From a virus, in the IMG/VR virus record IMGVR_UViG_3300027712_000018: a stretch of DNA of 64,000 nucleotides. One strand, 5' to 3'. Every line of letters starts with the position of its first letter. The stretch's first letter is position 1. Both the position numbers and the translations under genes were made by a program. A model generated the notes under the pieces. It saw nothing but the letters and a program-made list of their open reading frames with translations. It had not been told where the DNA came from and did not search any database. Of this stretch, positions 3,000 to 3,164 are shown piece after piece.

Positions 3000-3007
3000 T
3001 ATAAATA
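3000..3007 (+). promoter_or_regulatory. T4-type late promoter on the plus strand
   Basis: Exact TATAAATA facing an ORF-free 150-nt stretch that ends in a terminator. Confidence 0.7.
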
Positions 3008-3164
3008 AGTTTGTGGGTGCGTGAAAAGTACGTCAAACAACGTAAGAGGCAAGTGTGCAGTATATCACAACAGGAAAAGCAGAGGTCGCATCAAGTATGC
3101 CATTGGGGTTATGCTCTGCCACGTATCAGACTTAGAAAGGTCGTCAGGAATGGCGGCCTTTTTT
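3008..3164 (+). ncRNA. Putative structured late non-coding RNA
   Basis: Bounded by a late promoter and a U-tailed terminator. 5' (AAGTTTG..GGTGCGTG) and 3' (CACGTATCAGACTT) ends are complementary. Internal stems TACGT/ACGTA, GCAGAG/CTCTGC and GCAT/ATGC. No ORF. Confidence 0.65.
3136..3164 (+). terminator. Rho-independent terminator
   Basis: AAGGTCGTCA-GGAA-TGGCGGCCTT followed by a T run on the plus strand. Confidence 0.75.

Follow-up and report, generated by a model that had tools for sequence, protein, structure and literature searches.

What does a T4-like phage make from a late promoter that lies on the opposite strand to its replication operon and is followed, some 150 nucleotides on, by a terminator? 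The question arises in the window analysed here, a 64,000-nucleotide stretch of IMG/VR record IMGVR_UViG_3300027712_000018, which is part of an uncultured T4-like myophage. The syntenic anchor of the locus is the gene for the gp41 replicative helicase (3364-4794, minus strand), about 60% identical to its counterparts in cyanophages and phage DLP6. It is accompanied on the same strand by uvsX (4787-5869) and the DNA polymerase gene (5882-8437), both recognised from sequence and synteny; RegA, the sliding clamp, gp55 and the large terminase are further minus-strand genes near the RNA. An earlier note on this DNA had proposed that the plus strand carries a late, stand-alone, structured non-coding phage RNA, and the comparison of homologues supports that proposal: the locus is almost certainly a real RNA gene, self-contained, single-copy and non-coding.

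The motifs named in the earlier note are indeed where it had placed them. The T4-type (gp55) late promoter, TATAAATA at 3000-3007, is the sole plus-strand one among 11 copies in the window; a single such site lies within chance (3.3 expected, both strands), and 156 of 160 homologues keep the promoter, as TAAATA, upstream of the RNA. The late sigma factor gp55 is itself encoded in the window (16882-17442, E 1.6e-59). Since the late box of T4 occupies positions -13 to -6 (PMC2988020), the RNA is predicted to start at about 3013, and promoter and terminator together delimit a putative primary transcript of about 152 nt (3013-3164, plus strand), 114 nt of which (about 3013-3126) form the folded core. 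Across the family, the median distance from promoter end to U-tract end is 154 nt. The gp55 polymerase would then make an RNA of about 150 nt late in infection. Its intrinsic terminator (3139-3164) consists of a stem (3139-3146 with 3151-3158) and a plus-facing U6 tract (3159-3164), much as first described; it is missing from the output of a consensus scanner, despite a fold z-score of -5.06. Its sequence is free to vary across homologues while hairpin and U-tract are retained, the latter in 159 of 160. The same terminator probably also ends the converging gp41-orf66 message. On the other side of the promoter, and back-to-back with it, the stretch 2947-2982 holds a palindromic ATAAATATTTAT with late-box variants on both strands, as well as a minus-strand TTGACA upstream of a 62-aa ORF (2760-2948), for which it is probably a combined early and late promoter.

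Could the transcript be a message after all? The element had been called free of ORFs, which is too strong, as two plus-strand frames are picked out mechanically (3011-3166 and 3021-3185). What stands is that no frame is conserved, because the spacing of the motifs over 196 homologues spreads across all three frames (89, 71 and 36 copies), and these short ORFs are not kept.

The homologues were gathered in two ways. Eighty loci were fetched through gp41 only, independently of the RNA motif; nhmmer detected 13 copies there on the strand opposite gp41, to which a covariance model added 20 on the gp41 strand. More came from pattern scans of viral contigs and of metagenome contigs, the latter all longer than 1 kb. 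Distinct copies number at least 196, and their carriers are uncultured T4-like phages from aquatic habitats. Almost all copies sit just downstream of the helicase gene, gp41 adjoining 147 of the 160 copies examined for context. The RNA is a single unit in each of 100 loci, and two near-complete genomes of 165 kb have one copy each. Elsewhere the searches were negative. The long and short forms gave no real blastn match in 50,697 phage records, and the best score of the model in 12 complete reference phage genomes (DLP6, S-SRM01, S-SM2, HTVC008M, Cr30, phiM12, T4, C48C1, Melnitz, AG-345-L05, AG-345-F15 and ACG-2014f) was 16.6 bits, against 64-71 bits for positive records. Bacterial and archaeal genomes were scanned with a single pattern tuned to the long form; 100 of its 113 matches were scored, and the best of these, at 23 bits, was judged to be chance. 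Pattern matches in jumbo phages (the L189 group) were rejected as members, for they sit in coding sequence.

The copies support a model of six helices, all on the promoter strand. P1 (3017-3023 with 3120-3126) closes a four-way junction with P2 (3029-3044), P3 (3054-3069) and P4 (3079-3084 with 3114-3119), and P4 in turn bears P6 (3101-3113) and an optional hairpin, P5 (3088-3100). Changes on both sides of the pair are found at 7 of 7 pairs in P1 (92.6% paired), 5 of 5 in P2 (95.7%; variable loop), 5 of 5 in P3 (83.4%; length and loop highly variable) and 6 of 6 in P4 (99.7%; invariably 6 bp). P5 is paired in 99.5% of cases where present, and P6, invariably 3 bp, in 100%, with 33, 32 and 7 double changes at its three pairs. 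The sequence of P1 differs in the short subfamily and in one copy, L199; the helix is the same. Over 100 sequences, each of the 30 model pairs has double changes and the paired cells come to 94.7%, as against 27-48% in controls with slid partners; the model had guided this alignment. Without such guidance, a plain MAFFT alignment of the 55 long copies used is still 91.1% paired and supports 22 of the 30 pairs. RNAalifold recovers P4 to P6 unaided, the top 19 mutual-information pairs are all pairs of the model, and G-U pairs support the promoter strand only. Mutual-information and pairing tests on the alignment found no covarying pseudoknot. Folding energy is a poorer guide: the core alone is ordinary (z -0.45), and the z-score of -3.5 for the whole element is contributed by the terminator, so that the case for structure is one of covariation, not energy.

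Several parts of this fold had been seen from the single sequence. The hairpins at 3029-3044 and 3088-3100 and the stem 3079-3084/3114-3119 all show compensatory changes; what had been overlooked was P3, together with P6 and the invariant loop that it carries. Other pairings then suggested fared less well. The closing pair AAGUUUG/CAGACUU has to be given up: AAGUUUG begins inside the promoter and lies mostly outside the transcript, and in the nearest relative, L001, whose gp41 is 97% identical, this arm is altered while CAGACUU is kept. Nor is the alternative pairing of GGCA with UGCC borne out, being 90-93% compatible with no compensatory change, in rivalry with covarying helices and without its UGCC in the short subfamily. 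A GGAAU/GUUCC pairing was rejected (90-93% compatible, no compensatory change, competing with covarying helices), as was a UGC/GCA pair from RNAalifold, which joins columns that do not vary and cannot form in the short subfamily. A sequence upstream that is an inverted repeat of P1 (2966-2972) is present in 1 of 89 copies. In one sub-lineage (L025:4627-4680, L026, L027, L032, L041 and L054), an extra small hairpin lies between late promoter and P1, which suggests that the 5' end of the transcript can be extended.

The P2, P3 and P5 loops are free to vary, unlike the junction motifs and the arm of 6 + 3 bp. The unpaired strand J2/3 (3045-3053) carries a near-invariant GNGGCA (3046-3051), in which each G and the C is found in 98 of 100 sequences; GGCA is present in 190 and GGCU in 6 of 196 copies, themselves selected with this motif. 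J3/4 (3070-3078) has an invariant GGAA (3073-3076; 100 of 100). Finally, the 7-nt loop of P6, UGGGGUU (3104-3110), is held 9 bp from the junction. It occurs in 71 of 72 copies tallied with a pattern that lacks the loop, many of whose loci had first been fetched using loop-containing patterns. Such selection inflates the apparent invariance of the motifs, but all three are present in each of the 33 copies to which gp41 had led. Around the junction, some ten unpaired G's are invariant and lie in short tracts. The sole copy with a changed loop, L534 (9656-9775), has an A inserted in the G run, and is either a useful natural variant or an assembly error.

The strand of the RNA, to which the earlier note had given weight, loses its importance once the copies are compared, as 77 run with gp41 and 73 against it. 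P5 accompanies the antisense orientation in 73 of 74 cases and is absent from all 77 short copies on the gp41 strand. In a gp41 tree (FastTree, midpoint-rooted, from which no ancestral orientation is claimed), the RNA copies fall in one large uncultured clade beside the cyanophages, marine as well as freshwater and with gp41 identity down to about 60%; the P5-bearing form makes up one subclade, and some nested lineages are without a detected copy. The strand opposite gp41 thus reads as a lineage inversion rather than a functional feature. The copy L199 (1099-1290) is of the long form and lies on the gp41 strand, with a wholly different P1, an extra 5' hairpin and a variant late box that overlaps an upstream stop codon; it is possibly an intermediate between the two subfamilies.

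The inversion also bears on whether the RNA acts on its own locus. Its fixed place at the end of the uvsX-gp41 operon (147 of 160) would suit an elaborate terminator or attenuator serving that operon, or an RNA primer of replication. Such a cis element is nevertheless highly improbable, in view of the promoter of its own in 156 of 160 copies, the separate terminator directly after the core, and a fold that stays on the promoter strand, the only one its G-U pairs support, when half of the family is inverted. The flips in orientation, together with a terminator for each copy, argue that the RNA is not a cis leader. A riboswitch or other leader was likewise rejected, for the RNA's own terminator follows, and the next gene either has a separate late promoter (short subfamily) or converges on the RNA (long subfamily).

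Is it then one of the known RNAs? No family in Rfam 15 matched the element, by E-value or gathering score, either in the window or in seven diverse homologue loci, and ARAGORN reported no gene in the window, in keeping with the earlier note's failure to match it to tRNA, tmRNA or hammerhead. A multi-helix junction is shared with tRNA and tmRNA. The conserved columns hold no T-loop consensus, and a tRNA or tmRNA identity was rejected, since the RNA has neither T loop nor anticodon arm, and no CCA end or tag frame. The species I and II RNAs of T4 (rnaC and rnaD, NC_000866), annotated as small stable non-coding RNAs of about 120-140 nt and of unknown function, come like the present RNA from a T4-type phage. 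Their place, however, is within the tRNA cluster, and a tRNA-like T loop forms the end of rnaC, whereas the RNA described here has a late promoter and terminator of its own beside gp41; neither covariance model matches rnaC or rnaD. CfrI of cyanophage S-PM2, again from a T4-like aquatic phage, is an expressed non-coding RNA of unknown function, antisense to psbA and to a homing endonuclease gene, both of which it overlaps (PMC2984593). A cis-antisense role of this type was rejected here, as the overlap with the stop end of the neighbouring orf66 is 2 nt and half of the family is co-directional with gp41. The accessible text of an IMG/VR screen by Fremin, Bhatt and Kyrpides (2023) reports 8,495 candidate structured RNAs (PMC10690425); this family may be among them, unnamed, that text holding no description of the RNA that we could find. 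Nor did a literature search, whose coverage left most subscription papers aside, return one. A phage-encoded stand-alone small RNA is a known kind of molecule; the structural family, judged by these searches, appears to be new.

Small size, a multi-helix junction and invariant unpaired purines, all seen here, are common in ribozymes. A ribozyme of a new class is nonetheless hard to credit: promoter and terminator already set both ends, leaving self-cleavage without evident use, the fold lacks a covarying pseudoknot, and no Rfam ribozyme model matches. The known self-cleaving classes were rejected on the same ground (hammerhead, twister, pistol, hatchet and HDV-like models).

Invariant G tracts around a junction are also the layout typical of aptamer cores. 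The ten or so unpaired G's could thus form a G-rich core, possibly with G-tetrads, that sequesters a small molecule such as an anti-phage nucleotide second messenger, and the loop of L534 retains two GG pairs. Against such an aptamer or sponge, which we consider quite unlikely, stand the lack of a match to any riboswitch family and of an expression platform or regulated gene; we know of no natural precedent for a free RNA sponge of second messengers.

Protein partners come to mind more readily. Stand-alone folded RNAs that bind proteins include the CsrA/RsmA sponges and phi29 pRNA, the latter phage-encoded and of similar size. A CsrA/RsmA sponge was rejected because the one conserved GGA lies in the junction, rather than several in hairpin loops. 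A type III antitoxin or pseudo-ToxI was rejected too, there being one unit per locus in the 100 loci and no covarying pseudoknot; the antitoxin mimic once suggested is further disfavoured by the absence of repeats and by a neighbouring small ORF that is missing near several copies. That ORF, orf66 (3163-3363, minus strand; 66 aa), is the usual but non-obligatory neighbour. It is predicted to fold into three strands and a helix (pLDDT 90.6), and has no Pfam match, a weak PHROG match and no informative fold match (best Z 4.5). Over 100 variants of it occur in uncultured phages, and the cultured collection has none; the family shares a conserved glycine-rich C-terminal motif with invariant E16, F45, P50 and F52.

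Together with orf66, or with a head or packaging protein, the RNA might form a small RNP or travel in the virion as cargo for the next host. The late promoter agrees with this, as does the presence of orf66, at a median distance of 42 nt, beside 30 of 33 RNA-positive gp41 loci and, among RNA-negative loci with enough flank, beside only one (L031). Yet both lie in one clade and at one locus of the gp41 tree, so the co-occurrence is largely shared descent; four contigs of 35-91 kb carry the RNA but no orf66; and the protein is variable, with identities of 23-50% within its family, where the RNA motifs are invariant. We regard the RNP or cargo as rather unlikely. In phi29 pRNA, complementary loop-loop pairs build multimers; no covarying loop-loop signal is seen here, although bases that are invariant could not show one. 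T4 packaging is not known to need an RNA. Other genes are recorded here for completeness. A DUF6267 protein (PHROG 455) is encoded at 2-1192 and 1189-1929 (both minus), behind a late promoter at 1948-1955; the best reference match of this region is phage C48C1 (54%), and a large protein cluster that includes one of its ORFs occurs near 85 of 160 RNA copies. In one RNA-bearing relative, gp41 (L375:5192-7429, minus) seems interrupted by intein-like insertions, with a similar adjacent piece of uvsX, and the structural region of the window has an ORF of 1999 aa (52850-58849, minus).

What would bind so small a set of fixed bases? The helices are free in sequence while junction and distal loop are fixed, from which we infer a surface for an unchanging partner: the helices would be a scaffold holding GNGGCA, GGAA and UGGGGUU at fixed spacing, and the three motifs would form one compact face. 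The likeliest partner, in our judgement, belongs to the conserved translation machinery of the host, either a protein that acts on ribosomes or tRNAs or the 3' ends of tRNAs themselves. The RNA would then act in trans as a decoy or ligand, so that translation continues to serve virion production. This is our preferred reading, held tentatively at a probability of roughly 0.4. Among the functions suggested in the earlier note, a decoy or sponge would be the best fit.

The genomic setting, as seen in two genomes, is in accord with a concern for translation. The two near-complete RNA carriers have about 27-28 tRNA genes each and a two-piece tmRNA of alphaproteobacterial type (L674:18249-18647 in G001, L682:19033-19457 in G002), and a TATAAATA box stands directly ahead of the tmRNA in G001 and of a tRNA group in G002. 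Late supply of translation RNAs thus looks like a habit of the clade. The two-piece tmRNA makes an alphaproteobacterial host likely, yet phage Melnitz carries such a tmRNA and infects OM43 (PMC9004378).

Might the motifs reach the ribosome by plain base pairing, as in a small RNA directed against host rRNA or mRNA? The loop is complementary over 7 of 7 positions (with G-U at both ends) to 23S rRNA 2061-2067, and GGCA to 2617-2620, both conserved in Alphaproteobacteria. Sites of this kind for the loop number four in 23S, however, with another in 5S, and its word does no better than permutations. The joined motifs have a better site than 2609-2622, 23S is not singled out by hybridisation energy, and the loop's complement is equally frequent on both strands of the window (8 vs 8). 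With motifs merely 4-7 nt long, and the 2-nt ORF overlap speaking against a cis-antisense RNA, a base-pairing role seems very unlikely.

The most specific version of the translation reading is of another kind: P6 and its loop would copy the P-loop hairpin of 23S rRNA, nested in P4 as helix 80 is in helix 74. UGG and GGU words serve T-box or RNase P-type CCA-binding loops in pairing with tRNA 3' ends, and UGGGGUU contains both. Helix 80 resembles P6 in its 3-bp stem and its 7-nt loop starting with UGGGG, as well as in an enclosing helix that follows GGAA; no other 3-bp stem with a 7-nt UGGGG loop occurs in the 16S and 23S rRNAs of E. coli. In helix 80, the CCA end of tRNA is paired by G2251 and G2252 (PMC7049736). 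GNGGCA and GGAA match E. coli 23S 2046-2061, just before helix 74, and the three motifs come there in the same order (2046-2061 and 2246-2258), as they do in 0.05-0.13% of rRNA shuffles; the hairpin alone is met in 41% of these, and hairpin plus GGAA in 12%. The likeness was noticed post hoc and concerns short, G-rich words. There are differences as well. The phage loop ends in UU, not CG, and the P6 stem is free in sequence; helices 73 and 89 and the other peptidyl transferase elements are missing; and 23S 2046-2057 is paired in the ribosome, whereas the corresponding phage motif is unpaired. Alphaproteobacterial 23S has U in 31 of 32 cases where the phage RNA has its invariant C, the covariance model does not match the E. 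coli rRNA operon, and the A inserted in L534 would break the P-loop register. We therefore take the likeness to helix 80 as a lead on the mode of action, not as homology. P-loop-like binding of CCA, on this post-hoc lead, would be unlikely. A further step less likely is a stand-alone RNA of 100-120 nt that reproduces, late in infection, the P-site face of the peptidyl transferase centre through a helix 74-like arm with its P-loop; such a mimic would capture the CCA ends of tRNAs, or divert enzymes whose targets are tRNA ends or the ribosome.

T4-type phages have been much studied, yet to our knowledge very few small RNAs other than tRNAs are known from them, none with an assigned function. With its well-supported fold and few invariant bases, the present RNA lends itself to probing, to structure determination and to pull-down of its partner, all with synthetic RNA, for which the phage is not needed. 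If its partner does prove to be the translation system, an RNA tool would be added to phage counter-defence. If the P-loop reading were true as well, nature would have provided a P-loop module that stands alone, away from the ribosome, a kind of which no report was found in the literature searched, and the RNA would bear on ideas about minimal ribosomal RNA modules.
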